Positions 1,093 to 31,345 of a stretch of DNA of 42,296 bases are shown in pieces. Numbering within the stretch: the stretch's first letter is position 1; the number at the start of each line of letters is the position of its first letter. The position numbers and the translations under genes are program-made. The stretch comes from a virus. Its lineage: Duplodnaviria; Caudoviricetes. Location: positions 1 to 42,296 of the IMG/VR virus record IMGVR_UViG_3300038314_001501; one strand, written 5' to 3'. The notes beneath the pieces are model-generated. The model did no database searches. It was given only the letters and a program-made list of their open reading frames with translations, and had not been told where the DNA came from.

Positions 1093-1269
1093 CTACAGCC
1101 GACCCCATGCAACTGGCTGGGTGGTACGAATGAAATCTATGAGATCTTCACGTAGAACACATAGCGAGCGGTCGTACTCAGACCAATGACGAGTAGCGTA
1201 GCCAACTGAGTTGAGATGACTCTCTATATGCTCTTCAAATTTCTTCTCAGTTGGTTTAAGTGAAGTCAC
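1093..1269 (-). pseudogene. hsdR: Truncated Type I restriction subunit HsdR (N-terminal 58 aa only)
   Basis: GTG overlaps the hsdS stop (GTGA). Translation MTSLKPTEKKFEEHIESHLNSVGYATRHWSEYDRSLCVLREDLIDFIRTTQPVAWGRL* resembles HsdR N-termini (E..FE..IE..L...GY...YDR.L.....D...FI..TQP..W). Confidence 0.75.
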
Positions 1270-1901
1270 GCCACTTCCTCCACAACCCTGACCTTACCTG
1301 TGACTACGTTAGAGATTAGGGACTGTCGATATTCTTTAAGTAGTTCAATCTTTCGTTCACTCTTTTCTATCAAAGAGTCTATTTGCGTTGTTTTTTCATC
1401 AAGGTAGTTGGCTATTTCGGTTTGGGTATTCTGGTTGGGTACAGGTATAACAATCGATTTCAACTGATCCCATCGAGTACTCCATAAATCCCAATGAATC
1501 CCTTTCCCATTCCTAAAAAATTCTTCTTTGAAGTAGTAACTCTTAAATAGATATTCAGCATAGGTGGGTATGATTTGTCGTGGCCCCAATACAATATTGA
1601 TTACGGAAACAGAACCATCTCTTTTAGATAAACCAGATGATCCTTTACGGTCTGAGCGGGAATTGATTACAAAATCACCTTCCCTAACAAGCTTCCTGTT
1701 GTCAGTATTATCGGTTTTTGCTACGTCTTCTAGTTGGTCAACTATCCCATTCATTGTCACAGACAAAGGAGGAAACGTTTTGTCATCGACTGTTTGTCTT
1801 CTTTCAGAGAAGTAATCACCGACTCTCTTCAAAGACCAACTGGACGGTATCTCTCCAATCCACTCTAGACCGCTGTCTTTATAACTTATGTATCTATTCA
1901 T
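1266..1901 (-). CDS. hsdS: Type I R-M specificity subunit, half-size (single TRD)
   Basis: YKDSGLEWIGEIPSSW start and Q.EIANYLDEKTTQIDSLI...LLKEYRQSLISNVVTGK end; only 211 aa. Confidence 0.9.
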   Translation of the reverse strand: MNRYISYKDSGLEWIGEIPSSWSLKRVGDYFSERRQTVDDKTFPPLSVTMNGIVDQLEDVAKTDNTDNRKLVREGDFVINSRSDRKGSSGLSKRDGSVSVINIVLGPRQIIPTYAEYLFKSYYFKEEFFRNGKGIHWDLWSTRWDQLKSIVIPVPNQNTQTEIANYLDEKTTQIDSLIEKSERKIELLKEYRQSLISNVVTGKVRVVEEVA

Positions 1902-3603
1902 CGGATAAACCTTTCAACAATGCACTAACATCATTGTCCAAAGACTTCAGGTCGTCTCTAATCTCTTGTACAGTCCTAAGCCCAGCAAACTTATAAAAAT
2001 ACTTGGTGAAATTAATTTCATATCCAATCTTGTCTTTTGACCTGTCCATCCATGCATCTGGTACATGGGGTCTAACCTCAGTTTCAAAATACCTATTGAT
2101 ATCTTGATCCAAAGGTACTCGTTCGTAATCCCTTTTCGCTGAGTCAGACTTGGGATTTCCCTTCCTATCTGTTTGTACCTCTCCATCTTCAACCAAAGGT
2201 TGCTCCACGGTTACCTTTGTATAGCCAAAGAATTCATTCGGGTAGATTTTGGAAAATTCGCTTTCCTCACCGGACATATAGATGTTAAAAAGCTCATCAA
2301 TGTGCTCACTCGATAATTCTTTGCCCTTGTCACCCAAGTTCTTTCTCATCGATGTTCCAAATGATGAGCCGTCAATAAGCTGAACTTTACCCATTCGCTC
2401 TGGTGATTTTTTGTTAGTTACAGTCCCTATGTAGGTATGGATACCCGTGTTGAAAAACATCCTGTCAGGGAGGGCAACAATACATTCAAGCCAGTCATTT
2501 TCAATAATCCACTTACGTATCTCAGATTCCCCACTTCCAGCATCACCAGTAAATAGGGGTGACCCATTGAAAACGATACCTATACGTGAACCATCTGGAT
2601 TCATTTTGTGAATCAAGTGTTGAAGGAACAACAACGAGCCGTCTGATGACCTTGGAGTACCTGCAAAGAACCTGCCACTAGGATCTTTACTCTCTTGTTC
2701 TATAAAAGCTTGTTCTGCCTTCCAGCTCACTCCAAACGGGGGATTGGTTATCATGTAATCGAATTTCCTGCCATGAAGACGATCATCGGAGAGTGAACTA
2801 GCAGGGCCGTGAATATTGTCAGTGTCTTCCCCCAGCATTAGGATGTCGGATTTGCATATTGCATAGGTAGTATCATTAAGTTCCTGCCCATAGATATTCA
2901 TTATCAAGTCTGGATTGATGTTTTCCTGAACCCACTCCTTTCCAATCGTCAGCATGCCTCCAGTCCCACAACAGGGGTCAAACACTGATCGAATCTTTCC
3001 TGCTCCTTCAAGATTCTTTCTGTCCCCTCCAAATACAAACGATACGAGGAGCCTGACTATATCTCTGGGCGTGAAATGGTCTCCACTTTCTTGATTGGAC
3101 ATCTCAGAGAATTTCCGAAGAAGCTCTTCGTAGATTGACCCCATTTGGTGGTTGTCTATCGCAGATGGGTGGAGATTAAACTCCGTGAACTTATCGATTA
3201 ATAAGTAAAGACGTTTGTTACTATCAAGTTTCCTAACCAGAGGGTCTATAGAGAAGTTATCAATGATGTTTCGCACATTCTCCGAATACCCTTGAATGTA
3301 GTTATTGAAGTTCATCATTACGTTATTCGGGTCGCTTTTGATGCGAGTCAGGTCAAATCTGGAGTGATTGTAAAAAGGGAGACCCACCTGCTTTTGAATT
3401 ACAGGGGAGGAATCTGTTAGCTTATCTTTATACTGCTCATAAAGGTTGAACATCTCATCTTTTTTGGACTCAAGTACGCAGTCCAACCTTCTCATGACGA
3501 CAAAAGGAAGAATGACACGTCCATATTCACTGGGCTTGAACAGACCACGTAGAACATCGTCTGCGGATGACCAAATGAGTGAAGAAAGATTGTTGTCAAC
3601 CAT
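1894..3603 (-). CDS. hsdM: Type I R-M N6-adenine methyltransferase subunit
   Basis: IWSSADDVLRG N-terminus, GDHFTPRDIV, FDPCCGTGGML (motif I), NPPF (motif IV), IGYEINFTKYFY C-terminus. Confidence 0.95.
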   Translation of the reverse strand: MVDNNLSSLIWSSADDVLRGLFKPSEYGRVILPFVVMRRLDCVLESKKDEMFNLYEQYKDKLTDSSPVIQKQVGLPFYNHSRFDLTRIKSDPNNVMMNFNNYIQGYSENVRNIIDNFSIDPLVRKLDSNKRLYLLIDKFTEFNLHPSAIDNHQMGSIYEELLRKFSEMSNQESGDHFTPRDIVRLLVSFVFGGDRKNLEGAGKIRSVFDPCCGTGGMLTIGKEWVQENINPDLIMNIYGQELNDTTYAICKSDILMLGEDTDNIHGPASSLSDDRLHGRKFDYMITNPPFGVSWKAEQAFIEQESKDPSGRFFAGTPRSSDGSLLFLQHLIHKMNPDGSRIGIVFNGSPLFTGDAGSGESEIRKWIIENDWLECIVALPDRMFFNTGIHTYIGTVTNKKSPERMGKVQLIDGSSFGTSMRKNLGDKGKELSSEHIDELFNIYMSGEESEFSKIYPNEFFGYTKVTVEQPLVEDGEVQTDRKGNPKSDSAKRDYERVPLDQDINRYFETEVRPHVPDAWMDRSKDKIGYEINFTKYFYKFAGLRTVQEIRDDLKSLDNDVSALLKGLSDE

Positions 3604-3607
3604 AAAC

Positions 3608-3892
3608 CTAACTCCTCAATTCAGGATACTTCTCAAACAATTCCGGGTGTTCCTGCTCCCTTAATTCAGGCTTCTTTTCATAGCGTTCATGATCAGGACC
3701 GCACTCCAGTATCAGATTGCCCCGCTCCGTCTTCCCGCCTCGACCCAGGGCTATGATGTGGCTCAATGATATCCCACGCCAATCCCCGGTCGAGCCGCAG
3801 GTCTGGCAGCATTCCCCGTACTGGTCTATCAACTCCCGTTTCAGTTTAGAATGCAGGGCTAACTCTCGCCTTCTCTGCGGGGATTGTTTCAT
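3608..3892 (-). CDS. HNH endonuclease
   Basis: CQTCG...SHIIALGRGGKTERGNLILECGPDH. Confidence 0.75.
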   Translation of the reverse strand: MKQSPQRRRELALHSKLKRELIDQYGECCQTCGSTGDWRGISLSHIIALGRGGKTERGNLILECGPDHERYEKKPELREQEHPELFEKYPELRS

Positions 3893-3895
3893 CGA

Positions 3896-4558
3896 CTATT
3901 CCATCAACTTCTGAGCCGGCTTGATCAGCTTCTCCACAATAAGCGGCCAGAGATCAGCGACAATTATCTGGGATACTTCCTTCTCGGGGATGCTGAACTC
4001 CCTGAGAATATCAGATCGCTGTACCCCTTCCGCCGCAGCAGCGGTGAACATCTCGCCCACTGTCTCAGGGGCGCCGGTGGACCCGTTATCCTTAGATTCG
4101 ACTGCCGGTGCCATCCGGGTCTTGATCTCAGGGTGGACTTGACCATTACCAAGCCAGGTTTTGAGCTTTGCCACGAGCGCGTCATCATCGGCTATTTTAC
4201 CTGCTATCCAGAGCTGGGCAATTATATCAGCTCGCTTCTGTGACTCAATGCTCTGCCTGGTTATGCGATCCTTCTCTGCCCATGCCTCTTGGCTCATGCC
4301 GTTGCCGTTGGACTGAGGGGACGATGCCGGGGCTTTCCCCTCTGACACCATGGCTAGTTCCTTGAAGCTGCGCTTGTCTCCATCCTTGATTGTGATGTCC
4401 CCGATCTCGATCACGGCGCCAGGGGAAAGTTGTTCAGCCTTGGTATCGAAGGTGGTGTATTCTACCCCGTCCTGGCTGACGACCTTGAAGAGCCGCCATT
4501 TGCCCTTTTTACTCTCCCCATCTTTTAGAAACTTGGCTTCCTTAACTGTGATCTGCAT
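3896..4558 (-). CDS. Hypothetical protein, possibly ssDNA-binding/recombination (OB-like N-terminus)
   Basis: Beta-rich N-terminus (GESKKGKWRLFKVVSQDGVEYTTF) in the early region; RBS present. Confidence 0.55.
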   Translation of the reverse strand: MQITVKEAKFLKDGESKKGKWRLFKVVSQDGVEYTTFDTKAEQLSPGAVIEIGDITIKDGDKRSFKELAMVSEGKAPASSPQSNGNGMSQEAWAEKDRITRQSIESQKRADIIAQLWIAGKIADDDALVAKLKTWLGNGQVHPEIKTRMAPAVESKDNGSTGAPETVGEMFTAAAAEGVQRSDILREFSIPEKEVSQIIVADLWPLIVEKLIKPAQKLME

Positions 4559-4787
4559 GCTGTTCCTCCTTTGGATACATATTCCTGAACACCGGTTTCC
4601 AGTCGATGCCTTTCAACCCACCCCTGATTGCTTTGTGCGCCTCTGCCATCCGGTCAAAGCACTCTGCCCCGGTCTTGCTCATCCCTTTCTTGCAGCAGCC
4701 ACAGGTACATGGCTTGGATTGCAGCTCCTCGTGTGCTTGCTGTAGCTGATCAGTTATCGTTGAATTCTTTTCTTCATTAGCTTCCAC
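4542..4787 (-). CDS. Hypothetical Cys-rich protein
   Basis: AAGGAGG RBS; CTCGCC motif; overlaps the next gene. Confidence 0.55.
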   Translation of the reverse strand: MEANEEKNSTITDQLQQAHEELQSKPCTCGCCKKGMSKTGAECFDRMAEAHKAIRGGLKGIDWKPVFRNMYPKEEQHADHS

Positions 4788-4986
4788 TTCTTACGACCTC
4801 CTTATTTCTATAGGCAAATATGTTTTCATGATCATCCCGGCTATCTATTAGTTCCTGAATACGCAAAATCCTCCTTTCAAAAAATGGATCCATCAGCACA
4901 TCGTGAGATACCTTTTGGTGAGCATAGCTGACATTTCCCGGGGATTTAACCCCGATGATTGAGCCGATCTCTGATTTTGTAGTCTC
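4777..4986 (-). pseudogene. Startless remnant resembling the DnaA C-terminal (domain IV) HTH
   Basis: Frame ETTKSEIGSIIGVKSPGNVSYAHQKVSHDVLMDPFFERRILRIQELI... resembles 'S..EIG..FG.RDH.TV..A..K....D..'. It is preceded by an in-frame TGA, and the GTG at 4990 is out of frame. Confidence 0.5.
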
Positions 4987-4990
4987 TCAC

Positions 4991-5359
4991 TTAGACCTCC
5001 ATCTTCATCTGTTCGGGCTGTAGGATAGGTCTTGACGCTCTGAGGAAATCCCGCCTTCTCAAAGCATCCTCGATCAATCTGCCGCGAATCGACTGGGCAT
5101 ATCTCTCGACCTCTTCTTTAGTTTCGGCCAGGAAGAACCCCGCCGGCTTGACCGTGGTGGAAGCAATCGGATAGCCCTCTTCGATTAGCTCCCTGATCAT
5201 CATCCTGGTCAGTCGGTCACTGCCCACAGGTTCATATCGGCATGCCGCGGCGATCACCTTGCCTGGCAAAGCATGCGCCCGCCCTTTCTTAAGAGTAGAT
5301 AGGATCAGGCGCTTGAGCTCCGGTCTGTTCTCCGGTGGTATGCTCATCAAAAACTCCAC
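4991..5359 (-). CDS. Winged-helix DNA-binding protein
   Basis: DRLTRMMIRELIEEGYPIAS....GFFLAET.EE pattern typical of phage wHTH proteins. Confidence 0.65.
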   Translation of the reverse strand: MEFLMSIPPENRPELKRLILSTLKKGRAHALPGKVIAAACRYEPVGSDRLTRMMIRELIEEGYPIASTTVKPAGFFLAETKEEVERYAQSIRGRLIEDALRRRDFLRASRPILQPEQMKMEV

Positions 5360-5562
5360 TTCTCCAGATATAACTCTTTGTCTGATGCGGTATTATGGAT
5401 CCGATCCGGATGTACTGCCCAGGATAGTCCGCCACCGCCCTTCTCGACCTGTAGGTATGTCTCTCCAGGGAGGATGGGGTCAGGGCACACACGGCATTCA
5501 AAATACTTCTTAGCTTTGACCTCAGTGAAAATGTAGCCTGCCTCTCTGGTCCGTGTTCTCAT
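5347..5562 (-). CDS. Small putative Zn-binding protein
   Basis: ECRVCPDPILPGETY motif; GGAGG RBS. Confidence 0.55.
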   Translation of the reverse strand: MRTRTREAGYIFTEVKAKKYFECRVCPDPILPGETYLQVEKGGGGLSWAVHPDRIHNTASDKELYLEKWSF

Positions 5563-5602
5563 CTCAATACCTCCGTGTTATTTGGCTATCTAGCTAGTAG
5601 GG

Positions 5603-6172
5603 TTACGTTATTGGATATTCCCATCTTATCTTTGGGGCTAGTGTTTGCTCTTTGTTTCGCTGCCTCGTTCTTGTTGTCCACGATAAAGCCTTGGCTGGTT
5701 CGCTGGCAATCCAATTGCTTGCCTTGTAGATAGTGCCCTGATGAACCTCTGTATCCTGATAAGAGATAAGTTTGATGACATCGGGGAACTTCTTGCGAAT
5801 GAGTTTCACCATCACCCCGATCATCCAACTAGACGTGAACTTTGGAGCTTCAGCGCAGACAGCCAATCTCCGTAATTCAAGCAATCTACGCCCATCCTTC
5901 AGTCTGTTTCCTGCCACTGGTGTACTCCATATCCCCACAGCGAGGGGGTGACCATCATACCGAGCCACATAACAAACATAGTGGATATTTCTGACCACGT
6001 TAGACCAGTGGATATACGGTAGGCGGCTGTGCCATAGAGCGTTTAGTTCGCAAGCACTCTTAGCTGAAAGCTCCGAGACTACGAATTGGAGCGGTGAGGT
6101 CGGGATTGAACCGCCTTCTTCTATCTGGAATGATAGCTGTTCTACCATTGAACTACCACCGCACTGGTTCAC
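5603..6172 (-). CDS. mom: Mom-family (GNAT-like) DNA adenine hypermodification enzyme
   Basis: WHSRLP, LELRRLAVCAEAPKFTSSWMIG, KLISYQDTEVHQGTIYKASNW, matching the Mom-family pattern ELxR...P.N.ES...S(F/Y)AD...G.IY.ASN(F/W). GTG start has an AAGGAG RBS and overlaps the upstream stop (GTGA). Confidence 0.8.
   Translation of the reverse strand: MNQCGGSSMVEQLSFQIEEGGSIPTSPLQFVVSELSAKSACELNALWHSRLPYIHWSNVVRNIHYVCYVARYDGHPLAVGIWSTPVAGNRLKDGRRLLELRRLAVCAEAPKFTSSWMIGVMVKLIRKKFPDVIKLISYQDTEVHQGTIYKASNWIASEPAKALSWTTRTRQRNKEQTLAPKIRWEYPIT
6087..6162 (-). tRNA. tRNA-Gly(UCC)-like element, non-canonical, embedded in the mom coding sequence
   Basis: GCGGTGG TA GTTC-AATGGTA-GAAC AG CTATC-ATTCCA-GATAG AAGAA GGCGG-TTCAATC-CCGACC TCACCGC T CCA (76 nt). 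It has a 7-bp acceptor stem, D arm, TTC loop, U73 and encoded CCA. The anticodon loop is 6 nt and the T-stem carries a bulge. Confidence 0.75.
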
Positions 6173-6273
6173 TTCAACTCCTTCAAAGTTATTCCTGGTT
6201 GCTCTTTAGCCTTGAGAGCCATCAGAGCGAATACGGTCTGCGCTTTGCCTGTTAAGACGATGACGGGTTTCAT
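6169..6273 (-). CDS. 34-aa hypothetical protein translationally coupled to mom
   Basis: MKPVIVLTGKAQTVFALMALKAKEQPGITLKELK*; ATGA and GTGA overlaps at its two ends. Confidence 0.55.
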   Translation of the reverse strand: MKPVIVLTGKAQTVFALMALKAKEQPGITLKELK

Positions 6274-6479
6274 CTCTCCTCCTCGATTGCCCTGGTTAAG
6301 CTATCCCGCAATTCTACTATTTCCTCCAGGGTAACGCTGCTGAAGACAATCTCACCCTGATTATTGCTACGATAATTAATAAGGATGGGGAAGTCGTTAA
6401 TGTCATTGTCAAAGTCCAACTTGAGGGAAAGCTCCTCGGGGGCTACCTGCTTGCGTATCTTTGCTTTTATAGTTGTCAT
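6270..6479 (-). CDS. Hypothetical protein
   Basis: AGGAGG RBS; coupled stop/start overlaps. Confidence 0.6.
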   Translation of the reverse strand: MTTIKAKIRKQVAPEELSLKLDFDNDINDFPILINYRSNNQGEIVFSSVTLEEIVELRDSLTRAIEEER

Positions 6480-6652
6480 GCGACCTCCTTGAACTCATTG
6501 ATGACCTGCCGGACCCTTTCGCGATCTTCGCGCTTCAATTTAGCTTTCGCATAGTAAGCCTGAGCCTTATATAATTCAAGAATAAAGCGGCGATCTGATA
6601 CGTTATTCTGCTCATTTCCATCCTTATGATGCACTATTAATGGTTTCCTCAT
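6476..6652 (-). CDS. Hypothetical protein with an HNH-like fragment
   Basis: MRKPLIVHHKDGNEQNNVSDRRFILELYKAQ...; ATGA overlap with the next gene. Confidence 0.5.
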   Translation of the reverse strand: MRKPLIVHHKDGNEQNNVSDRRFILELYKAQAYYAKAKLKREDRERVRQVINEFKEVA

Positions 6653-6654
6653 AT

Positions 6655-6822
6655 CTACCCTTCCCGCCTCGCATTATCCAGGGCTTTGAGGATTCTACTG
6701 ACTCTGGATCGAGAAATATGGAATATGTCTGCTAGGGCCTGATGTGTATAATCAGGATGCTCCCGTGCGAATTTCCGTAGTCTCTCATTGCGGTCTCTCT
6801 TGTCCTTCATCTTATATATCAT
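6655..6822 (-). CDS. Small Cro-like HTH regulator, first gene of the early operon
   Basis: ...RNERLRKFAREHPDYTHQALADIFHISRSRVSRILK; GAGGTG RBS; directly downstream of a strong promoter. Confidence 0.7.
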   Translation of the reverse strand: MIYKMKDKRDRNERLRKFAREHPDYTHQALADIFHISRSRVSRILKALDNARREG

Positions 6823-6842
6823 TCTATCACCTCACTAACCCT

Positions 6843-6871
6843 ATAGTAGCACAGAGATGGCACAATGTCAA
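6843..6871 (-). promoter_or_regulatory. Strong sigma70 promoter of the early operon
   Basis: TTGACA (6871-6866), 17-nt spacer, TACTAT (6848-6843); AT-rich UP-like tract upstream; TGTGC direct repeat in the spacer. Confidence 0.8.
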
Positions 6872-7044
6872 TACCCTAATCCATTTATTTTCTACTTATT
6901 TTGATTTATTTTTTAAGGCATGGGTATACACGGAAAGGTGCTTAATGGATGCCGTCAGAGGCAACGAGAGGCAAATCCTGATGGACAGGGGTATAACTCT
7001 AGGGGGAGATCGGAATGAGGCGCAGGATTGTTAGCTGGTGAAGC

Positions 7045-7398
7045 CTACCACCATCCTAACTTATTGCCTAAGCCGTAGATTATGGCCAGCAAGGCTGTGG
7101 CTATCGTGCCGAGAAAGCTGGCCTGCTTCTTCCTGGACGGTTTCTGGCGGTCAGCGAGAATGCCAACCTGCTTATCTGTCGCTTCTATCCGTTGGTGGTT
7201 TTCTTTGATATCGTCCCGGGCGATGTTCAATGACCCGATAAAGCCGCCGTTCTGAGTATCCTTAACACCAAAGAGACTCGTATACATCTGCTCCTGAGCC
7301 TTATTCATCTCTTTGACCTCAAGGGCTAATGCTTGGTGATTCCCCTCCAGGGAGAGGAGTATTTGTCTGTCGGTCCGTTCGTCTTCAGCCATTGTCAA
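7045..7398 (-). CDS. Coiled-coil protein with C-terminal TM helix (holin/XhlA-like)
   Basis: Coiled-coil N-terminus, hydrophobic FLGTIATALLAIIYGLG; last gene of the tail operon. Confidence 0.55.
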   Translation of the reverse strand: MTMAEDERTDRQILLSLEGNHQALALEVKEMNKAQEQMYTSLFGVKDTQNGGFIGSLNIARDDIKENHQRIEATDKQVGILADRQKPSRKKQASFLGTIATALLAIIYGLGNKLGWW

Positions 7399-7403
7399 AT
7401 CCT

Positions 7404-7676
7404 TTACGCGGCAACCGCCGTGCCATCATCGACGCGGCGCCAACCTACAGCGTCATCATATACTAACACACCGGTTCCTGCCCCCGCACCCTCTCCGGTC
7501 TTCCGCCCATTTGTGGCAAAGCGTAAGCGTCCGGCTTGGCCGGCAGCCGGTAGCCCGGCCACTGTCGATGTCGCAACCCCCCCGGCGGTCTCGGCTCTCT
7601 CCATTGCTTCAAGAGCCCGGAGTCGACGGGACAGAGCTGCTATCGCCGGTGCTATATCATCAGCTGAGAGGGACAT
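7404..7676 (-). CDS. Small minor tail protein
   Basis: Likely start MSLSADD (7676); TVAGLPAAGQAGRLRFATNGRK...WRRVDDG motif. Confidence 0.6.
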   Translation of the reverse strand: MSLSADDIAPAIAALSRRLRALEAMERAETAGGVATSTVAGLPAAGQAGRLRFATNGRKTGEGAGAGTGVLVYDDAVGWRRVDDGTAVAA

Positions 7677-8808
7677 CTGATAACTCCAAAATGATTCTTT
7701 CCACGCCGCGCTGCACGGATATCTGCACCCCGACAATCTTCTTATTCCGTTCGATATCGTTGTACCGCGCTGTCACGAGGTCGCCCAGGAAGTAATCCCG
7801 CCCGTAAAGGGTAGCGGGGATCTGGAGACCGTTGAACCTGAAAACTTCCTTTGCCTGAAGACTCTCCAGGGCCTCATCGCCTATGGAATTGAGCCCGGCA
7901 ACGGCATCCTCGGTGTTACCCTGGCGTGGCCGTTCAATACGATTCCAGGTAGATTCAGCAATAGCAGCGGCATCGGTTCGTTCGACAAGTAATCTATCCG
8001 CCTCCTGGCCCTGACCCAATACAATAACGCTGGTAACTTCATCCCTGCGATCATTTGAGTAGAGTGGGATCTCCATATTACCCTGGGGCAGAGAGAAGAT
8101 AACGGGTGGATTGCCGGCTCCGTTGAGTCCCGTTGCGGGATCAAGCCCGGTGGTCGTCCTGTCATCGCCCCATGGGGAAGCCTGTGCCTGGAATTCAAAC
8201 GTGGCAGGCCCCGTGCCAATGATACCGAAATCAACATCCGAATCTCTCGCCACTTCAACCAGGATATCAAGTAAGATCCGATACGCCCGCGCACCAGTCC
8301 AGACCGCGCCAGCAGCGCCATCTGCTTGAATTGTAAGCCCAGCCATAACTCCCGCTGATAGTAATCTCGGCGGGGATGTAGCCCCGGGACCGGCGTTCTC
8401 GTCAACGAATTCCTTCATCACCGTCTCACCGACTGCGGCTTTGTCAGCCTGGGCACTTCCCGTTGCATAGAGAATAATCCGCCGCGCAAGGAGATGATCG
8501 TATCCCATGCCTATACTGGAGAAGGTAGCCCGGCCGTCGAGAGCGGTGCGTCTGACTTCCGTCCGGTGAAAGCCCTCATACTCAAGATAGATGGGGATCA
8601 CCGGGTCCGCCGCCAGGTCCGATCGCCACACTTCAATCTGTCCATCCAGAACGAACTCGTCGAGCACCGCAATATTCCCATCTATTTCAAGGGTGCAGCT
8701 ATCGACTCCATTCACTTTCCGATGGAACTTCAGGTCATACCAGTCAGTTAAGATGGCAACCTGGACACCTGCTAGATTCTTGAGCCTTACCTGATAACGC
8801 GGGGCCAT
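7660..8808 (-). CDS. Siphovirus minor tail/baseplate hub protein (ReqiPepy6 Gp37-like)
   Basis: VLGQGQEADR, YGRDYFLGDLVT motifs; position in the tail module. Confidence 0.8.
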   Translation of the reverse strand: MAPRYQVRLKNLAGVQVAILTDWYDLKFHRKVNGVDSCTLEIDGNIAVLDEFVLDGQIEVWRSDLAADPVIPIYLEYEGFHRTEVRRTALDGRATFSSIGMGYDHLLARRIILYATGSAQADKAAVGETVMKEFVDENAGPGATSPPRLLSAGVMAGLTIQADGAAGAVWTGARAYRILLDILVEVARDSDVDFGIIGTGPATFEFQAQASPWGDDRTTTGLDPATGLNGAGNPPVIFSLPQGNMEIPLYSNDRRDEVTSVIVLGQGQEADRLLVERTDAAAIAESTWNRIERPRQGNTEDAVAGLNSIGDEALESLQAKEVFRFNGLQIPATLYGRDYFLGDLVTARYNDIERNKKIVGVQISVQRGVERIILELSDVPLS

Positions 8809-9081
8809 CTATCTCTCCAGTTGTGCTACCCTGTTTGTGAGGTCGTCAATCTCAGTCTTCAAGTCCCTGGGCGGTTCCGGCTCAATATAGTCAGGGTTGG
8901 CTATCAGTTTCTTTTTGTCGGTATCATACAGCCATGTCTGCATCGGCTTATCGGGCAGCCCACGATCAAGAACCTTTACGACCTCTGCCTCTCTCCCCCT
9001 GTCGAGGTTCCCGAACCTATTGGCATCGGCACACCAGGCAGTCAGGACCTTAGTGTCTTTGTTGTATCTTATCTCAAGCAT
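8809..9081 (-). CDS. Hypothetical tail-associated protein
   Basis: GGAGG RBS; C-terminal coiled coil; follows the fibre-like gene. Confidence 0.6.
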   Translation of the reverse strand: MLEIRYNKDTKVLTAWCADANRFGNLDRGREAEVVKVLDRGLPDKPMQTWLYDTDKKKLIANPDYIEPEPPRDLKTEIDDLTNRVAQLER

Positions 9082-9090
9082 TGGACCCTC

Positions 9091-10113
9091 CTATATATAT
9101 CGAAAGACGACGCCGATCACATCAAAAGTACCCGCTGATATGGCATCCAAAATGAACTGTATCCCAACGAAGTCTTCGGCGAGCAGCCCAGTAAAGGCAG
9201 CCGAGATATCGACTTCCTCAATCTCATTGTTGGTCATCGCGAGTCCGTTCTGGGTGTCAGTATCGGAGTGCGTATTGAAGACCTCACCGATCGCTGCAAA
9301 GTCCGTGTTTGCCGTCCAGTCAATGGTGCCACTGGTAATTTTGATACCGAGAACTTTACAATGAATTAGAGAGACGAAGTCATGAGGTACCTTCAAGTTG
9401 GTAAAGATAGCATCAGGGGAACCATTCAATTGTTTTGCCTCAAACTCTCCCACAGCCACTGCTACTGCACCATTATCCCGATGGCCGTAAATGTCAATGA
9501 AGAACTCTTTCGCTGCCAAGTCAGCCCAAGTTCCGGCTATCCGACCTTGAAAGCTGCTGGTCGTTTCATTCCAGATCCTCATCCCATTGACTGCCGTCAT
9601 GGCATCCCGTTCAGCGGTAGTCATTGAGGGAATGCGTGTGTTGACTCTCTCCCGTTCATCGGTGAGTGTGACACCATTCCCAGGGAAGGCTACACTTGCC
9701 TGGAAGAGAGGGACATCCCAAGTCACACCATCGTTCTGCACCAGTGCCGGCACTCCGCCACCTTCCACACCACCAATCCTGGTAATCCTGATTGTCTGGG
9801 CAGCCCAGGATTTACGGAGCACAATCCTGTCGATGCGCGTGGCACCAGCTGGGTTGGGGAGTGCGACAGCTACGGCCACATCATTTTCATAGAAGCTCCC
9901 ATCGACAAGCGCCACCCCGGTGTCTACAGTGACTGGCGAGAATCCTGCCGCCGATGTCACATTCAATTCATTGAGGATATTGGAAAGAATCCCGGTGTCT
10001 GCGTCTGCCAATGCCCCCAGAAACCGCTCCCATATATCGGTCCAATTATCATCTGTGTAGGGGCCGGCATCACCGGTTGTTGTCCCTTCCCATGGTCTAC
10101 TTAATTCTGTCAT
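9091..10113 (-). CDS. Tail fibre/baseplate (receptor-binding candidate) protein
   Basis: RIDRIVLR baseplate motif, MTTAERDAM motif, beta-rich C-terminus; follows Dit. Confidence 0.65.
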   Translation of the reverse strand: MTELSRPWEGTTTGDAGPYTDDNWTDIWERFLGALADADTGILSNILNELNVTSAAGFSPVTVDTGVALVDGSFYENDVAVAVALPNPAGATRIDRIVLRKSWAAQTIRITRIGGVEGGGVPALVQNDGVTWDVPLFQASVAFPGNGVTLTDERERVNTRIPSMTTAERDAMTAVNGMRIWNETTSSFQGRIAGTWADLAAKEFFIDIYGHRDNGAVAVAVGEFEAKQLNGSPDAIFTNLKVPHDFVSLIHCKVLGIKITSGTIDWTANTDFAAIGEVFNTHSDTDTQNGLAMTNNEIEEVDISAAFTGLLAEDFVGIQFILDAISAGTFDVIGVVFRYI

Positions 10114-17441: not shown

Positions 17442-20129
17442 TTAGCTCCCCATGACGGCTTCCAGTGCTGGCTTAGGCTGTAGCTCGGCTTCCGGCTCTG
17501 AGTCCGCGATCTGGAAGTCCTTGCGCATGGATATGAAGCCGTCGAGGTCTTCATTATAGATGAACTTCCTTCTGTGAGTGGCGGTATTGCCAAAGGTATA
17601 TCGAGTGCGAGTGGCCTTCCCAGTCCACTGTGACTTACCACCACCACCCGTGTATTCAATCAGCGTCATACCGCTCTGAGGTTTCATACTCAGTGGTTGA
17701 GGTGGCGGAGGCGGAGTACTGACTCGTCTCTTACTACATCCTGCACATCCCATGATCAACTTCTCCTTGCCGGCCGCACCGTTATCGAATATCTCTGGCC
17801 ACTTCTGCCGCATGGCATCCTTGCTCTTTTCCTTATTAGCCATGTCGGATTCACGGCGCTTACCGGTTGTTTTCCTGTATGTAAAAAGCGGCTTGTTTAT
17901 CTTGACTGCACAACCCCCCTTGAGTGCATAGGCGATTTGAAAGTCCCAATCCTCCCAGCTCTGCATATCAACATCGTATCCGCCGACCTGCTCCCACGCT
18001 TCTTTTGAGTACATGGCACAACTCGCGTGGATGCAGCCCTTGCTGACAAGGAGCTCCGGATGCCATTCTGGGGGGTCCCATATCTTGGTATCCCCATCCC
18101 CCTTTTCATCCCACCACTGGGAGTAAACAACGCCCTTTGTTTCCTGCCACACTGACCACATATCCATCAGGCACGTTGGTTCCAGTATATCATCTGCATC
18201 AAGGCAAACAAAAGCGGCAGTCTCGGATAATGATATCCCTAAGTTCCGCGCTGCGGCGGGACCCTCCTTCCCCTTAGTGCTGACTATTCTGGCCCACGGA
18301 TGCGGTACCGCTAGTTCCTTGCCGGTGTCATTCACGACGATACAATGCCAGTTACGGAAATTCTGCGCCTCGACAGAATCAAGGGCATCGATAACCAGCT
18401 TCTCATGCCCAGTCCCCACAGGGATGACCACGGTTACCAACGCGGGTTCACAGGATGGTACTGGCCATGCCTTCCCTATCACCGCAGGCGGTTTAGCAGC
18501 GACCCCCCAGGGGACCAGATTGACATTCTTTGTCCAGGGCATCCACGAAGTCCAGTCGGGTTCTGTCTCACTGCGGCTCTTACTGTCTGGACGGTACCGG
18601 TAGATATACGTCACAGATTGTGTCACCTTCTTCGGCTGGAAACCATACGAAACAGCACGGATCCAGAACTCGGCATCCTCGGACACCTTCGCTCTATCGC
18701 GATATCCGCCCGTCCTCTCATAAACCTCCCGCCGGCATAGGCAAGTGCTGGGGATTTGGTTCTTATGTTGGAACTGAGCCAGGCAATTGAACTCGGGCGG
18801 CCACCTCGATACACCGTCATCGGTACCTGTAATCGGGTCTGGTGTCACCCCGTCCTCCAGGACAAACTTAATGCGCCCATAGGCGATATGGATCGATCGG
18901 TCATTGTCCAAAGCATCGGAGAGGTTCTTCAATGTTGCCGGCGGTATCATGTTGTCCGGGTCAAGGTTCATCACGTAACGGCCGCGGGCATGCTTGAAAC
19001 CATGATTCAAAGCCCCCGGCAGTTTGAGGTTGGCCCCGGTTGAGATCACTCTTATCCGATCATCACCCTTCGCCAGGTTCTTGGCAGCTTGGAAAGAACC
19101 ATCCTTGGATTTATCATCAACTATGATCAGTTCCCAGCTCCGCATTGTCTGATCCTGAACGCTCTTGATCATGTCAGGTAGGAGGTGGCCGAGGTTATAG
19201 CAAGGTGTTATAATGCTGACCTTTGGTAGATTATTGAGGTTGTTTTGCCGATCGTAAACATCCTGATAGAGCTGGGCGTATGATGCCATGACTTTATCCC
19301 ACGTAAAGCGCTCCAGCACTACAGCTCGGGCAGCCTCGCCAATCTCCTCACGGTGTTCAAGGCACCACGTTAAGCCCTCTCTCAGATGCTTATAGTCTCC
19401 GGGGGGAGATAGCCAGCCCGTTTTACCATGCTCGATTATCTCCGTCTGCCCTCCCCATTTCCAGCCTAATATCGGCACCCCGCAAGCCATCGCCTCAAGT
19501 GTTCCGATCCCAAAGGTCTCCCGCGTAGTGGCCAGATAAACCCCTGCATGCCGGATGTATTCCATTGCCTCCTGGAATACCTTCTTCCCGGTTACTTCAA
19601 CATTCTTTGCCGGCTGACCAAAGGTAGTGACGAATGGGACATCGGGTGATATGGCTGCCAGTTTGTTCACCGGTATCGGGTCCGATATCGCATCGGTTCG
19701 CGCCTTATTCCATAGAACATAACCCTCATTCTCCCCGGGTTCCCAGATCCCGGCGTCTATCCCGTGGTGTAGAACTGTTGGGCTAATCCAGGTACCCCGC
19801 TTGATTGCGTAAGCCACCCATTCACTCGGAGCCGTCACGTGATCGCACCGCTTCATCGCCTCGGTCACCTGGGCATTCACTCGGGCACCCCAGCCAGGCC
19901 AATCATATTCCGACCAGTAGAGACCGTGGCAATGCGACACCCAAGGCATCCCCACAGGGATATCAGGTATCTCGGCAGCATGAGTCGCTACGATATCGGC
20001 GCCGGCTATCTTGTCGACCATCTCGAAACCGTAGGCTGGGAGGTATTTGAATTGAGCCTCAACGACTCGTCTAATCCCACCATCACCTCTATCGGGTCTA
20101 TCATATTGCGGGATAATCATCAGTTTCAT
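17442..20129 (-). CDS. Multidomain glycosyltransferase (GT4 + GT2 + GT2) with a C-terminal non-GT domain
   Basis: GT4 ETFGIGTLEAMACG; GT2 VSIITPCYN...VDDKS...LDPD; second GT2 VTVVIPV...VVND...CLDADD...EDWDF. Confidence 0.9.
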   Translation of the reverse strand: MKLMIIPQYDRPDRGDGGIRRVVEAQFKYLPAYGFEMVDKIAGADIVATHAAEIPDIPVGMPWVSHCHGLYWSEYDWPGWGARVNAQVTEAMKRCDHVTAPSEWVAYAIKRGTWISPTVLHHGIDAGIWEPGENEGYVLWNKARTDAISDPIPVNKLAAISPDVPFVTTFGQPAKNVEVTGKKVFQEAMEYIRHAGVYLATTRETFGIGTLEAMACGVPILGWKWGGQTEIIEHGKTGWLSPPGDYKHLREGLTWCLEHREEIGEAARAVVLERFTWDKVMASYAQLYQDVYDRQNNLNNLPKVSIITPCYNLGHLLPDMIKSVQDQTMRSWELIIVDDKSKDGSFQAAKNLAKGDDRIRVISTGANLKLPGALNHGFKHARGRYVMNLDPDNMIPPATLKNLSDALDNDRSIHIAYGRIKFVLEDGVTPDPITGTDDGVSRWPPEFNCLAQFQHKNQIPSTCLCRREVYERTGGYRDRAKVSEDAEFWIRAVSYGFQPKKVTQSVTYIYRYRPDSKSRSETEPDWTSWMPWTKNVNLVPWGVAAKPPAVIGKAWPVPSCEPALVTVVIPVGTGHEKLVIDALDSVEAQNFRNWHCIVVNDTGKELAVPHPWARIVSTKGKEGPAAARNLGISLSETAAFVCLDADDILEPTCLMDMWSVWQETKGVVYSQWWDEKGDGDTKIWDPPEWHPELLVSKGCIHASCAMYSKEAWEQVGGYDVDMQSWEDWDFQIAYALKGGCAVKINKPLFTYRKTTGKRRESDMANKEKSKDAMRQKWPEIFDNGAAGKEKLIMGCAGCSKRRVSTPPPPPQPLSMKPQSGMTLIEYTGGGGKSQWTGKATRTRYTFGNTATHRRKFIYNEDLDGFISMRKDFQIADSEPEAELQPKPALEAVMGS

Positions 20130-20890
20130 GCCGACACCTTCAATGCTTCCAACTTGTCCAAAAACTCCTTACTTGCCTCTTCCCTAGTGAGCCCCCGATT
20201 CTCCAGCGCCTCCTTGAAGCTGTACCCATCGCCTATGTGATCGCATATATCATAGCGCAACCAGGCGGGCCAGACGATATCCGGTCCGGGCTGGCACATT
20301 ACATTCGATTGCATCCCCAGTTCGGTAATCCCAGGGGTCTGGCCTTCAGGGTAGATACCGTAAGCATCGTGGAATCGGCGGTGCCTCATGGCAGCGTGGC
20401 CGACCCACGTCCACAACTGCTTCTCTTTGTCCAACCTCCACCATAAGCGATCGCCGCCCGTTATGACATGGCCGTATAGATCAGGCTGTAGTCTTCCGAG
20501 CCGTACCATGCCTATTTCCTCATTCTCCTGGAACAATTCAACGCATGGAATCAACTCGATCTCCATATTCGGTACCCAGTCATCCTCCCAGTGAAGCCAC
20601 ATATCAGCCCGCTCCAGGCATCTCGCTATTCCCTCATTCATGTTCTTCCCGACGCTGTGACCGCCCGTGTTGGAAGTTGTTATCTCATAATCAGCCCCGA
20701 TCTCCTCAACTAGCTTTTCGATGTGACCACCATTACTCCCGTCGTCGGCGATGTGCCATCCAAGATTGGGATACCGGATTCTTTCCTTGATGCCACGGAT
20801 CGTAGTGAGTGCGACCTCAGTCCGCTCATAGGTAATAAGAAGGACTATCACCAGGGGGAATTCGTTCATTTCTTCACCGTTATCTTCCAT
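20126..20890 (-). CDS. GT2/GT-A glycosyltransferase
   Basis: LLITYER, IADDGS, HWEDDW motifs. Confidence 0.8.
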   Translation of the reverse strand: MEDNGEEMNEFPLVIVLLITYERTEVALTTIRGIKERIRYPNLGWHIADDGSNGGHIEKLVEEIGADYEITTSNTGGHSVGKNMNEGIARCLERADMWLHWEDDWVPNMEIELIPCVELFQENEEIGMVRLGRLQPDLYGHVITGGDRLWWRLDKEKQLWTWVGHAAMRHRRFHDAYGIYPEGQTPGITELGMQSNVMCQPGPDIVWPAWLRYDICDHIGDGYSFKEALENRGLTREEASKEFLDKLEALKVSA

Positions 20891-20924
20891 AATGTTCTCG
20901 GGACTCCATGCTCAGGAATTGTCA

Positions 20925-22034
20925 CTATCTCTTTGAACTCACCCCCGGTGAATACGACCGACTCCACATCCGCAAGTCTAGCTTCCCTAACGAAAGTAAG
21001 TTTAAACCTGGGATCGTTCCGAGGACGCCACGCTTCTCCGGATGGTTCACCATGGCCTCATCATCCACCGCCTGTTTGATCATGGCTTTAGCATCATCTA
21101 TTGACAGCGCCGTATCAGGTCGCTCGGAATTGTAGCGCTTATTGTGCCTCTCGAGGGGATCAGAAGTCATCGGGTATAGGCGCATGACAGCTTCCCTCAT
21201 GTTCGGGTTGCATAATGGAATTTGCTCGGCGCGGACAGATTCAATATCACCCAGTAAGTCCTCATGCATCTTTTCACCGAACCGGACACCGACCTCCTCA
21301 AATTCAACATCCTCGGCGTCCCCATCTAATTCCAGCGAAGCCACAGCGCGCGCCACATCCATCATATTCAGGGACGGGAGTCGGGGGATTAAGATAGTAC
21401 CGCCCTGCTTTTCCTGAAGCGCCATCAAGATCAGCTCTACCCCAGTCCCGACAGACAGCCAGAATCGGGTCATCTGAGGGTTGGTGATTAAGACATGTCT
21501 GTCCTTGATTATCTGGCGCCTGAACAATGGGATAGCACTGCCGGTACTGGAGACGACATTGCCATATCTAACAAGATTGAACTGCGTGGGACTCTTGGCA
21601 TCGGCTTCCTGGAAGAGGCGCTCCATCATCAGTTTGGTCGTACCGTAAACGTTGATCGGTTGGCACGCCTTGTCGGTGGATATCCCGACAACGCGGTCGA
21701 CGCCATTCCGGGCAGCGGCCCGGGCAACATTGAGGGAGCCAATGACGTTGATCTCGTGGCATTCGGCAACGTTAATCTCTGCCTCAGGGACATACTTGAA
21801 GGCAGCGGCGTGGACAACCGTATCGTGCCCCGCCATGGCCAACTCAATTGAATCGTAATCCCTCACGTCCCCGATGATGTATCTGTGCTGAGGGAATTCT
21901 CTCTGGCAATAAGAGTGCTTCCCGTGGTCTCTACTGAAGATAGTACAACGGACATCGGGCTCGCGTTCAGCCAATGTCCGTAATAGTGCTCGTCCCAGGT
22001 AGCCTGCGCCACCAGTAATGAATAGATTCCTCAT
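20925..22034 (-). CDS. UDP-GlcNAc 4,6-dehydratase-like (PseB/CapD family)
   Basis: TGGAGYLG, HAAAFKYVP, STDKA, YGTTK, RYGNV, MTRFW, GEKMHE motifs. Confidence 0.9.
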   Translation of the reverse strand: MRNLFITGGAGYLGRALLRTLAEREPDVRCTIFSRDHGKHSYCQREFPQHRYIIGDVRDYDSIELAMAGHDTVVHAAAFKYVPEAEINVAECHEINVIGSLNVARAAARNGVDRVVGISTDKACQPINVYGTTKLMMERLFQEADAKSPTQFNLVRYGNVVSSTGSAIPLFRRQIIKDRHVLITNPQMTRFWLSVGTGVELILMALQEKQGGTILIPRLPSLNMMDVARAVASLELDGDAEDVEFEEVGVRFGEKMHEDLLGDIESVRAEQIPLCNPNMREAVMRLYPMTSDPLERHNKRYNSERPDTALSIDDAKAMIKQAVDDEAMVNHPEKRGVLGTIPGLNLLSLGKLDLRMWSRSYSPGVSSKR

Positions 22035-25470: not shown

Positions 25471-26472
25471 CTAGTTATTTCTGACGGTAACGGGCCCGAG
25501 AGTCGAACTCGGTCCTCCTCCGCATGAGAGAGGCGACTTATCCGCTTGTCCTGCCCGACTCATATACTCGATTGTCCGTTTGATTCCTTCTTCCAATGTA
25601 ACAGTCGGCTCCCAGCCTATTTGATCTCTGAATCTATTTGCATCCAGAAAGGATGTCCTGACATCGCCCTGGCGAGTATCCTCATACTTTGGGCTGATGT
25701 ACTTACCCATCTGGGCTGAAATAATCCTGTGTATCTCATTGACTGTGATTGGGCCCCCGGATCCGATATTATAGATCCCATCCTTGTCGGCCTCCAAAGC
25801 CATAACATTGGCTCTCGCAATATCTTCAACAAACACGTAGTCCCTCGCTTGGTGACCATCTCCATATATTATACACTGTTCGTCAAGCATCATGCGACCA
25901 ATGAAGATAGCGACGACTCCAGCCGCCCCGTCCGCGGGCTGACCGGGGCCGTAAACATTCGGATATCTCAGCACGGCGCGGCTAATTCCGGATATCCGGA
26001 CATAGAACTCACCAGCTAATTTCGATATCCCGTAGGGAGATTGGGGGTCGAGCGGAGCGTCCTCCCCAACAGGAAACTTGGCGGGGTTACCATACACGGT
26101 GCCGCCGCTCGAGGCGTAGACAATCCTCTTGACTCTATTTCTTCGCAATGTAATTGACCTTGCAGCGTCAACAACAGAGATAGTACCCATGACATTCTGC
26201 TCGGCATCAAGTCCCCAGGCAGCCATTGAAACGGGGACTGCGCTCTGCGCACCAAGGTGGATGATGCCCTCGATTTCGTATTCGCACATCAACGCATCCA
26301 TCAACGGCTTGTCCTTCATGTCACCCGTTATCTTGTGGAGGCACTTCAAATCACGCATGCGCATCAGATCCCAATCAAGAGCGGTCACATCGTAGCCCTT
26401 CTCTTCGAGAAGCCTGATGGTGTGCCGTCCTATGAATCCCGCTCCGCCGGTGACCAATACTCTTTTCATCAA
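25471..26472 (-). CDS. NAD-dependent sugar epimerase/dehydratase (GalE-like)
   Basis: TGGAGFIG, ASSGGTVYG, YGISK, LRYPNVYGP, RDYVFVEDIA. Confidence 0.92.
   Translation of the reverse strand: MMKRVLVTGGAGFIGRHTIRLLEEKGYDVTALDWDLMRMRDLKCLHKITGDMKDKPLMDALMCEYEIEGIIHLGAQSAVPVSMAAWGLDAEQNVMGTISVVDAARSITLRRNRVKRIVYASSGGTVYGNPAKFPVGEDAPLDPQSPYGISKLAGEFYVRISGISRAVLRYPNVYGPGQPADGAAGVVAIFIGRMMLDEQCIIYGDGHQARDYVFVEDIARANVMALEADKDGIYNIGSGGPITVNEIHRIISAQMGKYISPKYEDTRQGDVRTSFLDANRFRDQIGWEPTVTLEEGIKRTIEYMSRAGQADKSPLSCGGGPSSTLGPVTVRNN
25485..25559 (-). tRNA. Degenerate tRNA(CAU)-like cloverleaf inside the epimerase 3' end
   Basis: GTCGGGC AG GAC-AAGCGGATAA-GTC G CCTCT-CTCATGC-GGAGG AGGA CCGAG-TTCGACT-CTCGG GCCCGTT A CCG. 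T arm and anticodon arm are intact; the acceptor stem has a mismatch and ends CCG rather than CCA. Confidence 0.5.
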
Positions 26473-30362: not shown

Positions 30363-30908
30363 TCAACCCTTCCTGTTTTTGAGTTCGGTCACCAGGATAT
30401 GACCTATCATCAAGTGGATGTCTTCTATCTGCTCCATGACCTCCGATGGGACGATGAGGCAGATGTCGGCGAGCCCCTTTACTGCACCACCTTGGAAGCC
30501 GGTCAAACCGATCGTCCTGACTCCCCACTCCTTAGCGATAGTGAGAGCTCTATAGATATTCTCCGATTCACCGCTCCCGCTGATAACCAGAACGACGTCC
30601 CCTTCATCTAGGAAGCGGCTCAGTTGCTGCCTGAATATCTCAGCATAACCCTCATCATTCGCCCAAGCTGTGATGAGATAATTCGAGTCCGTCAGAGCCA
30701 TCGCCTTGAGTCCGCACGTCTTATTAAGGTCTCCAGCTATATGCGAAGCGGTGGTCGCGCTCCCGCCATTGCCCATCACATAAATCCGGTTACCATTCTT
30801 GTGGGCTTCCCAGAGGACATCGGCAATCTCCCTGACCGTTTTGAAATTGTAGTCAACATACTTCAGGATGGTTCTCAGATCGTAGACATATTGTTCAATG
30901 CTCATCAT
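30363..30908 (-). CDS. gmhA: Phosphoheptose (sedoheptulose-7-P) isomerase, SIS domain
   Basis: MGNGGSATTASH, ITAWAND, ISGSGES.N, EQIEDIH motifs. Confidence 0.88.
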   Translation of the reverse strand: MMSIEQYVYDLRTILKYVDYNFKTVREIADVLWEAHKNGNRIYVMGNGGSATTASHIAGDLNKTCGLKAMALTDSNYLITAWANDEGYAEIFRQQLSRFLDEGDVVLVISGSGESENIYRALTIAKEWGVRTIGLTGFQGGAVKGLADICLIVPSEVMEQIEDIHLMIGHILVTELKNRKG

Positions 30909-31344
30909 TCCCTCTCTTTTGATCGCTGGCCCAGGCCGCCATGGCCTTCCTGAACATAACAGTGCTGGAGTTCAGTAGATCTCCCACGCCGTAGACGATC
31001 TCGCACCCTATCTCAGCACAGACGTCTTTCTCGACCTGGAGCATATTATCCGATGTCCTGTCACCACCCTTGGCGTAGATATCAGGTTTCAAAGCCCTCA
31101 ATACATCAAGCGGACTCCCGTTGATATAGTCCGGTACCATGACTTGGTCGACATCAACAACCGCCTCCAGGATGGCAACCCTATCGTCGATCGGGACAAG
31201 ACAGTATCCTTTCTTCTCTCTGAGTACTTCATCCGGGCAGACAAGGACAATCAGCCAATCTCCCAAAGCCTTCGCCTTCTTGATATGGTCCAGGTGTCCC
31301 CGATGAATGGGGTCGAACCCGCCGGCGATTACAACTCTGATCAC
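30895..31344 (-). CDS. HxGH cytidylyl/adenylyltransferase (RfaE-II/TagD-like)
   Basis: GGFDPIHRGH, PDIYAKGGDR, NSST. Confidence 0.88.
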   Translation of the reverse strand: MIRVVIAGGFDPIHRGHLDHIKKAKALGDWLIVLVCPDEVLREKKGYCLVPIDDRVAILEAVVDVDQVMVPDYINGSPLDVLRALKPDIYAKGGDRTSDNMLQVEKDVCAEIGCEIVYGVGDLLNSSTVMFRKAMAAWASDQKRGNDEH

Positions 31345-31345
31345 C

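Follow-up and report, generated by a model that had tools for sequence, protein, structure and literature searches.

The virus record analysed here encodes, within the reading frame of a Mom-family GNAT gene, a tRNA-Gly-like RNA of 76 nt (positions 6087–6162, minus strand) that, judging from the comparison of its relatives, belongs to a real and widespread RNA family whose structure is under selection. We consider it probable (about 0.7) that this RNA serves as a dedicated, non-ribosomal glycine donor for Mom. The anatomy of the RNA was partly known already, while its function as a donor is proposed here. A first-pass annotation of the same DNA had suggested a dedicated non-proteinogenic carrier rather than a randomly decaying tRNA, and the pattern of conservation described below, including a T-stem bulge that is present in all 85 parsed relatives and in only 3 of 107 control tRNAs, speaks for that suggestion. 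The nesting of the RNA in the mom reading frame was absent from that annotation.

The RNA and the gene that contains it

The sequence at 6087–6162 folds as a cloverleaf (z = −3.0). ARAGORN labels it “tRNA-???”, and its score against the Rfam tRNA family RF00005 (27.8 bits) falls just below the gathering cut-off of 29 bits; our own covariance model, R1, scores it at 92 bits, having been built partly from this very copy. No Rfam family other than tRNA was found at this position at E up to 1 in 3000–10000, and a blastn search with the 76-mer gave no match among annotated phages. The acceptor comprises seven base pairs, beginning with G1-C72, C2-G71 and G3-C70, and is followed by U73 and an encoded CCA, which, together with C35 and C36 in the UCC anticodon, corresponds to canonical tRNA-Gly. 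The D stem has four pairs and a 7-nt loop that holds GG. As U8, the D-loop GG, U33 and the T-loop UUC are all canonical in this copy, the deviations amount to two. One is a bulged A (6100) that separates pairs 51-63 and 50-64 on the 3′ side of the T stem, where canonical tRNA-Gly has an uninterrupted 5-bp stem. The other is the anticodon arm (6120–6137), of 18 nt with a 6-nt loop instead of the canonical 17 nt and 7-nt loop; its 6-bp stem, with a mismatched top pair, encloses the loop AUUCCA (6131–6126), in which C35-C36 occupy 6128–6127.

ARAGORN, Rfam, the predicted fold and direct reading agree with the first-pass annotation on a cloverleaf with glycine identity letters, on the 6-nt loop and on the bulge. 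The “extra nucleotide before the anticodon stem” of that annotation is better described as the mismatched top pair G26·A43 of the 6-bp stem, a pair that is formed in 22 of the 32 relatives with the same geometry. Likewise, its view that the parts facing the ribosome and EF-Tu are altered holds for the bulge and the longer anticodon arm and fails for the four canonical features listed above.

In contigs from three marine runs, other elements match the RNA only, with ends at 6084–6089 and 6162–6164, and marine-run contigs have variant letters at 6124 and 6133 that, taken jointly, would preserve one pair of the anticodon stem. As these are assembled contigs, the ends given here do not represent ends of an RNA molecule. 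A contig joint from 5562 to 6229, also in three marine runs, skips the RNA and mom together; its short side measures 30 letters, and it gives a weak hint of a close relative that lacks both (5563–6228).

The whole RNA lies in frame within ORF 5603–6172 (minus strand; 189 aa), of which it forms codons 4–29, the bulged A doubling as the first base of a Thr codon. The protein matches PF25680 (E 3e-13, 50.3 bits against a cut-off of 27.1) as well as phrog_1384, and a PDB search with the clade profile matched Mu Mom (8bv8) alone; Mu Mom also ranks first in the fold comparison of the predicted model. The likely start of mom (6170–6183, minus) consists of a Shine-Dalgarno-like AAGGAG (6183–6178), a 5-nt gap and a GTG at 6172, 10 nt ahead of G1 of the RNA. 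An alternative in-frame start, the ATG at 6148, is located within the D loop, and the public gene call (P0001) begins there; between the CCA and the Mom core, the translation of ORF 5603–6172 contains no start codon. The stop of a 34-aa ORF (6169–6273, minus; no Pfam family) overlaps the GTG of mom, possibly allowing translational coupling. Farther upstream of the gene run that holds mom, an intergenic gap contains a possible sigma-70-type promoter (6843–6871, minus) with 10 of 12 consensus letters, a weak candidate because three such sites were found where 2.9 were expected.

In the predicted model of Mom, residues 1–20 are disordered (pLDDT about 51) and residues 21–30, which are encoded by the T arm and the acceptor, are ordered (pLDDT 91), so the protein is expected to constrain this copy of the RNA as well. 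A profile alignment to 8bv8 matches R111, S124, D149 and Y159 of Mu Mom with R102, S115, D140 and Y149, and places Glu142 where Mu has R151. About 40 residues follow the equivalent of Y159, the region in which Mu has an essential helix-turn-helix insertion; in its place there is a short basic loop with the invariant residues W165, R170, R172 and Q176. As both R151 and the insertion are reported to be essential in Mu Mom (PMC13219725), the activity of this predicted enzyme may not be taken as assured.

The window, that is, the whole stretch of DNA analysed (42,296 nt), represents an entire virus record of 42.3 kb whose sequence is found in marine metagenomes. Among the 10 runs listed as containing it, none is an RNA run, which speaks neither for nor against expression. 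Its genes, almost all on the minus strand, include those for terminase, head, tape-measure and tail proteins, several DNA methyltransferases and sugar-nucleotide enzymes. Besides Mom, there are five methyltransferase-type genes (1093–3603, 32313–33833, 35621–37497 and 38630–40144, minus), several of them in low-GC patches: a type I HsdM with a partial HsdS and then a 58-aa fragment, three N6/N4 methylases and a ParB-methylase fusion. A sugar-nucleotide pathway lies among the head genes (17442–22034, 25471–26472 and 30363–32311, minus) and comprises a SIS-domain isomerase, a cytidylyltransferase, a GHMP kinase, two epimerase/dehydratases and an 895-aa GT1-GT2-GT2 glycosyltransferase, perhaps for heptose-type virion glycosylation. 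A second tRNA (25486–25559, minus; CAU anticodon, 38 bits against RF00005, mismatched acceptor ends) is again nested in coding sequence, within the 3′-terminal part of ORF 25471–26472 (NAD-dependent epimerase), just before a head gene.

Linkage of the RNA family to Mom

A DNA pattern made of the bulged T arm and CCA recovered at least 119 viral loci, and about 920 IMG/VR stretches are estimated for the narrow pattern. Among the matches listed, local profiles identified Mom at 111 of the 119 viral loci, and a Pfam check on 128 ORFs from such loci agreed. By contrast, the unbulged control pattern returned ordinary tRNAs of many kinds, with Mom at 0 of 123 loci; roughly one locus in three, in the bulged as in the control set, comes with flanks of just 300 bases. 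Among genome contigs of prokaryotes belonging to many phyla, Mom was in the flank of 83 of 111 bulged-pattern loci and missing from that of the other 28, and only three of ten genomes with such Mom-less copies, all ten being incomplete MAGs, hold a Mom above the Pfam cut-off. Free chromosomal copies are present in MAGs of Bacillota (L427, L430, L434, L441, L462, L496) and Acidobacteria (L423, L444, L448, L469), where they adjoin ordinary genes (an NHL repeat, an acyl-CoA dehydrogenase, YdjC plus GT2) and their flanks contain no Mom; they could be either donors domesticated for another enzyme or remnants of islands.

Counts from pattern-selected loci carry a bias towards the T arm and CCA of the pattern; for these features they were not used. 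For an unbiased set, Mom loci were fetched by means of the protein core, which lacks the part coded by the RNA, taking the 80 best out of 546 in one set and out of 373 in the other. A covariance-model search of these loci found a copy of the RNA at 29/80 and 67/80, respectively; in the Mom clade of the window, 51 of the 80 loci had no copy within 1.2 kb. After leaving out three matches to ordinary tRNAs, two at E about 0.8 and 11 duplicates, this set contained 86 distinct copies, 85 of which could be parsed (the T arm of L245 could not). A descriptor that required CCA missed most 3′ copies, finding 17/80 where the covariance model found 67/80. A third Mom subgroup (alignment A2) is represented by pattern matches only. 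The covariance model also detects unbulged tRNAs, with scores of up to 62 bits, and unbulged RNA neighbours of Mom would consequently have been seen.

Nine mom regions of cultured phages were also searched for copies, which were absent from eight, including that of the Mu-like phage D108. In the Psychrobacter phage vB_PmaS_Y8A (OQ059336.1, L542:1862-2002), two tandem copies, bulged, D-armless and unannotated, are placed between mom and the small terminase gene, terS; tandem copies are also present at L277 and L036. In cyanophage S-SSM6a (L547:2594-2665), a tRNA cluster just before a mom-like gene contains an annotated pseudo-tRNA, and in phage Melnitz-1 (L545:1997-2070) an unannotated, unbulged tRNA with a UUCCA loop lies inside a called CDS 1 kb before a mom-like gene.

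Conserved and drifting features

Among the 32 relatives with the geometry of the window copy, 97.9% of the cells are paired, compared with 39–51% in slid controls, and 18 of the 22 pairs, distributed over all four helices, change on both sides within coding sequence. All pairs of the D and anticodon helices, neither of which was part of any search pattern, show such two-sided changes. Pair 31-38 covaries too, closing the anticodon loop to 6 nt in 31 of the 32 relatives, and both flanks of the bulged A show compensatory changes.

In the 85 parsed copies, which were fetched through the Mom protein alone, the bulge is universal, and 81 of them share the same A, next to the second T-stem pair as counted from the base (between 50-64 and 51-63). 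G1C2G3 is kept in 84/85 copies, the CC of the anticodon loop in 81/85 (the hairpin did not parse in three) and U73 in 76/85, with A73 in the other nine (9/24 within the clade of the window). The letters that are kept match the published glycine identity set, as given in the available text of PMC9976931.

By contrast, many features related to decoding drift. For instance, U33 is found in 48/81 copies (18/19 in control tRNA-Gly), U8 in 58/85, the T-loop UUC in 43/85 (93/107 in control tRNAs), leaving 42 copies with other letters, and the D-loop GG, by a crude test, in 41/85 (102/107 in controls). In 30/85 copies the T stem has lost one pair and has four, and some relatives have no D arm. U34 is present in 69/81. 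A 6-nt anticodon loop occurs in 28/85 copies and in none of the 107 control tRNAs; a 5-nt loop is not abnormal by the parser used, as it was assigned to 11 of 19 control tRNA-Gly. In one group (L003, L007, L140, L155, L187, L216 and their kin), A73 and G37 are combined with a canonical length of the anticodon arm and the absence of the D-loop GG.

Mapping the mutations across homologues, which the first-pass annotation had proposed as a check against random decay, thus gives an uneven distribution in which identity elements and helices are held and decoding features drift. Two of its expectations stand in part: the beginning of the acceptor is kept almost without exception, with CCA being encoded in only 45/85 copies (24/24 in the clade of the window), and the D arm is intact in the window copy and is no rule for the family. 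Where CCA is not encoded, it would presumably be added by the host.

Arrangements around mom

Copies of the RNA are found in five arrangements: in frame at the 5′ end of mom, in frame at its 3′ end, free after the stop codon, in tandem, and antisense behind the gene. Among the distinct 5′ copies, 55 of 56 lie within the mom ORF, and in 54 of these 55 the inner length maintains the reading frame. About 50 copies at the 3′ end (L019-L135) use the same reading frame as the 5′ copies despite a D arm of variable length, and the mom stop at these loci often overlaps the start of the next gene. From these sequences, the frame does shape the total length of the nested copies, the exact length of which is tuned to the frame of the protein. 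It does not account for the bulge, an explanation that was considered and rejected: all 46 parsed non-coding copies, whether free or antisense, are bulged and keep U73, and 19 have a 6-nt loop, so neither oddity is a by-product of coding.

At 17 antisense loci (L219, L229 and the L247-L294 group), the RNA stands behind mom and points away from terS. A promoter-like motif is located just upstream in 15 of the 17 copies: TAnnTTTG, which we take to be the Bacteroidota −7 box, within 25 nt in 13 copies, and TTGACA-spacer-TAnnnT in two. The former motif is also found at 7 of 51 sense copies, mostly inside the last codons of mom, which makes the promoter test softer than the shuffle baseline would indicate (0.72 expected, too lenient). 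L218 and L219 encode near-identical Mom proteins and carry the RNA on opposite strands. In a tree of 78 Mom proteins, built by a quick method, well-supported branches force at least seven changes in the antisense state. An inversion artefact is unlikely, as the sequences of the antisense copies differ from those found in sense orientation with the nearest Mom proteins. The simplest reading of an RNA that switches side and strand yet remains next to mom is that it acts in trans and that the two are needed together.

A probable glycine donor for Mom and alternative explanations

Mu Mom has been reported to move glycine from Gly-tRNA-Gly to the N6 of adenine in double-stranded DNA, accepting all three E. 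coli tRNA-Gly isoacceptors and rejecting Gly-tRNA-Ala (PMC13219725). We propose that, in the phage studied here, the RNA would be cut out of the mom transcript by RNase P and 3′ trimming and charged by the host glycyl-tRNA synthetase. Because of the position of the bulge, the charged RNA would bind EF-Tu poorly, leaving it to Mom, which would transfer the glycine onto phage DNA. An RNA of this kind, charged by GlyRS and poor in EF-Tu binding, would both reserve a pool for Mom and spare translation.

The escape from EF-Tu is suggested by the location of the bulge among the three T-stem pairs that set EF-Tu affinity (49-65, 50-64 and 51-63), on which the first-pass annotation agrees with the available text of PMC3239215 and PMC7826273. 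The latter also describes FmhB, a tRNA-dependent GNAT, as being inhibited when EF-Tu sequesters Gly-tRNA, and in the cell most charged tRNA is bound to EF-Tu. We found no published account of EF-Tu binding to a bulged T stem, and the word “bulge” does not occur in the available text of those two papers; the bulge could instead be a positive handle for Mom. Since the start codon lies just before the RNA or within it, a single transcript would presumably yield either Mom or the mature RNA, not both. Processing of a nested copy must then destroy the message, and may thus limit the enzyme, as a side effect or as a second function. In summary, the donor function is favoured by nesting, covariation, the identity letters, the near-invariant bulge, linkage to Mom and the equivalents of four catalytic residues of Mu Mom; against the need for such an RNA, Mu Mom works with host tRNA-Gly and many mom genes have no copy. 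The chromosomal copies without Mom in the flank, the copies with A73 where bacterial tRNA-Gly has U73, and the lack of R151 and of the insertion in the Mom of the window also count against the donor function.

Four other explanations must be weighed. The RNA might act in cis on mom, as a tRNA mimic in the start region; cleavage by RNase P, or binding of Mom or GlyRS, would then hold down the level of a toxic enzyme. Mu mom is indeed tightly regulated, nearly all 5′ copies lie within the mom ORF with lengths that keep the frame, and the closeness of the start codon to G1 in the window would make processing destructive. However, the same RNA occurs after the mom stop, in tandem and in antisense orientation with a promoter-like motif of its own, and the antisense copies are scattered over the Mom tree; as a cis switch could not survive such moves of side and strand, this explanation is unlikely, and a cis effect may persist in nested copies as a side effect. 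It is quite unlikely that a charged, non-ribosomal RNA performs some other job, either as a decoy for host defences that target tRNAs or as the donor for a different enzyme. The free chromosomal copies without a nearby Mom in Bacillota and Acidobacteria MAGs would fit such a role, and U73 and G71 also belong to the identity set of the acetylating toxin TacT (PMC9976931). Nevertheless, the RNA is strongly linked to Mom and has remained so despite moving repeatedly, the 50 window ORFs scanned include no further member of a GNAT or Fem family, and in two of the Bacillota genomes Mom genes are in fact present, each accompanied by an adjacent copy of the RNA.

Decoding, by an ordinary GGA/GGN reader or by a +1 frameshift suppressor acting through the extra base of the anticodon arm, would be compatible with the U8, D-loop GG, U33, UCC, A37 and T-loop UUC of the window copy and with the prevalence of U34 among its relatives. 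It is made very unlikely by the covariation of pair 31-38, which imposes on 31 of 32 relatives a loop size never seen in the controls, and by the relatives that have lost U33, the T-loop UUC, a T-stem pair or the D arm. Finally, the RNA would be a relic if a captured tRNA gene or attachment site had been kept only because it codes for the N-terminus of Mom. In its favour, Pro24 and Ser26 hardly vary across the aligned proteins, residues 21–30 are ordered in the model, and a comparable short motif is retained by related Mom proteins that have no RNA. Against this, residues 1–20 are disordered, neither the bulge nor U73 is missing from any of the 46 parsed non-coding copies, and the two-sided changes in all four helices within coding sequence largely refute this reading, which we regard as highly improbable.

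Going beyond the donor function itself, it is conceivable, although we would sooner expect parts of this picture to fail, that phages and mobile elements of many bacterial phyla share a two-part kit for disguising DNA. It would consist of Mom and an orthogonal glycine carrier whose bulge would at once keep EF-Tu away and act as a recognition mark for Mom; in the virus studied here, with the carrier written in the coding sequence of the enzyme, the choice between translation and processing would set the ratio of enzyme to donor and cap a toxic protein.

If the RNA is in fact a donor for Mom, it would represent a second and far wider case of a dedicated non-proteogenic tRNA, serving the hypermodification of phage DNA, and would explain how Mom obtains charged tRNA past EF-Tu. 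In addition, the bulge would be a natural EF-Tu antideterminant of a new type, and a “pseudo-tRNA” seen in 2011 (see below) would gain a function. The family would also be a widely distributed case of a tRNA gene contained in a protein-coding gene. Many of its copies are missed or mislabelled by standard finders, and the cultured phage with two copies makes the donor idea directly testable.

Relation to known systems

We found no publication that links such an RNA to the glycine donor of Mom, in a literature coverage that leaves most subscription journals outside. In the study of Mu Mom by Silva et al. (2026, PMC13219725), neither the main text nor the two searchable supplements mention a phage-encoded or tRNA-like donor, although the remaining supplement may bear on the matter; the terms “tRNA-like”, “encoded tRNA” and “non-proteinogenic” are absent from the main text, and the first two also from the preprint. 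Mu Mom and the protein of the window share family (PF25680), fold and the equivalents of R111, S124, D149 and Y159. Forming 6-NcmdA from Gly-tRNA-Gly is among the criteria for the family, in which the window protein is placed by sequence and predicted fold. The two proteins differ in that Mu uses host tRNAs, the region of the Mu-like D108 being devoid of the RNA, whereas the Mom of the window lacks R151 and the long insertion.

A close precedent is the 76-bp tRNA-Gly-like “pseudo-tRNA” that McMurdie et al. (2011) described within a mom homologue in 16 Dehalococcoides islands and a marine fosmid (PMC3146451). As in the window, that locus measures 76 bp, lies in the first 150 bp of the mom homologue and has a glycine-type anticodon (“DCC”); compared by description, it very probably belongs to the same family, and Dehalococcoidia genomes are among our bulged-pattern matches. 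It resides on ssrA integrative islands (DsiB, DsiA module), and the available text gives neither a function nor a bulge nor a wider distribution; the window, in contrast, is the contig of a tailed phage, and none of its scanned ORFs matched a recombinase family.

A functional analogy is provided by the staphylococcal non-proteogenic tRNA-Gly NP1-NP3, the donors for FmhB, FemA and FemB, and dedicated tRNAs of this kind have so far been detected only in staphylococci (PMC7826273). The first-pass annotation had drawn the same parallel, which is sound in that the consumer is very likely a GNAT, namely Mom, in whose gene the RNA is nested, and unsound as regards Fem, as no Fem transferase was found among the 50 ORFs scanned and the window derives from a marine phage, not from a staphylococcal lineage. 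In both systems, glycine identity appears to be kept, the T arm is altered at the EF-Tu site and the consumer would be a tRNA-dependent GNAT. Many members of the RNA family even have the UGC T loop of the NP tRNAs, while the window copy has UUC rather than UGC or UGU. The NP tRNAs, however, have weak T-stem pairs and no bulge, and are chromosomal, staphylococcal and devoted to cell-wall synthesis (PMC7826273), whereas the RNA family described here is mobile, in many cases doubles as coding sequence, and is associated with an enzyme that modifies DNA. By analogy, then, the RNA of the window would work like the NP tRNAs but is not one of them.
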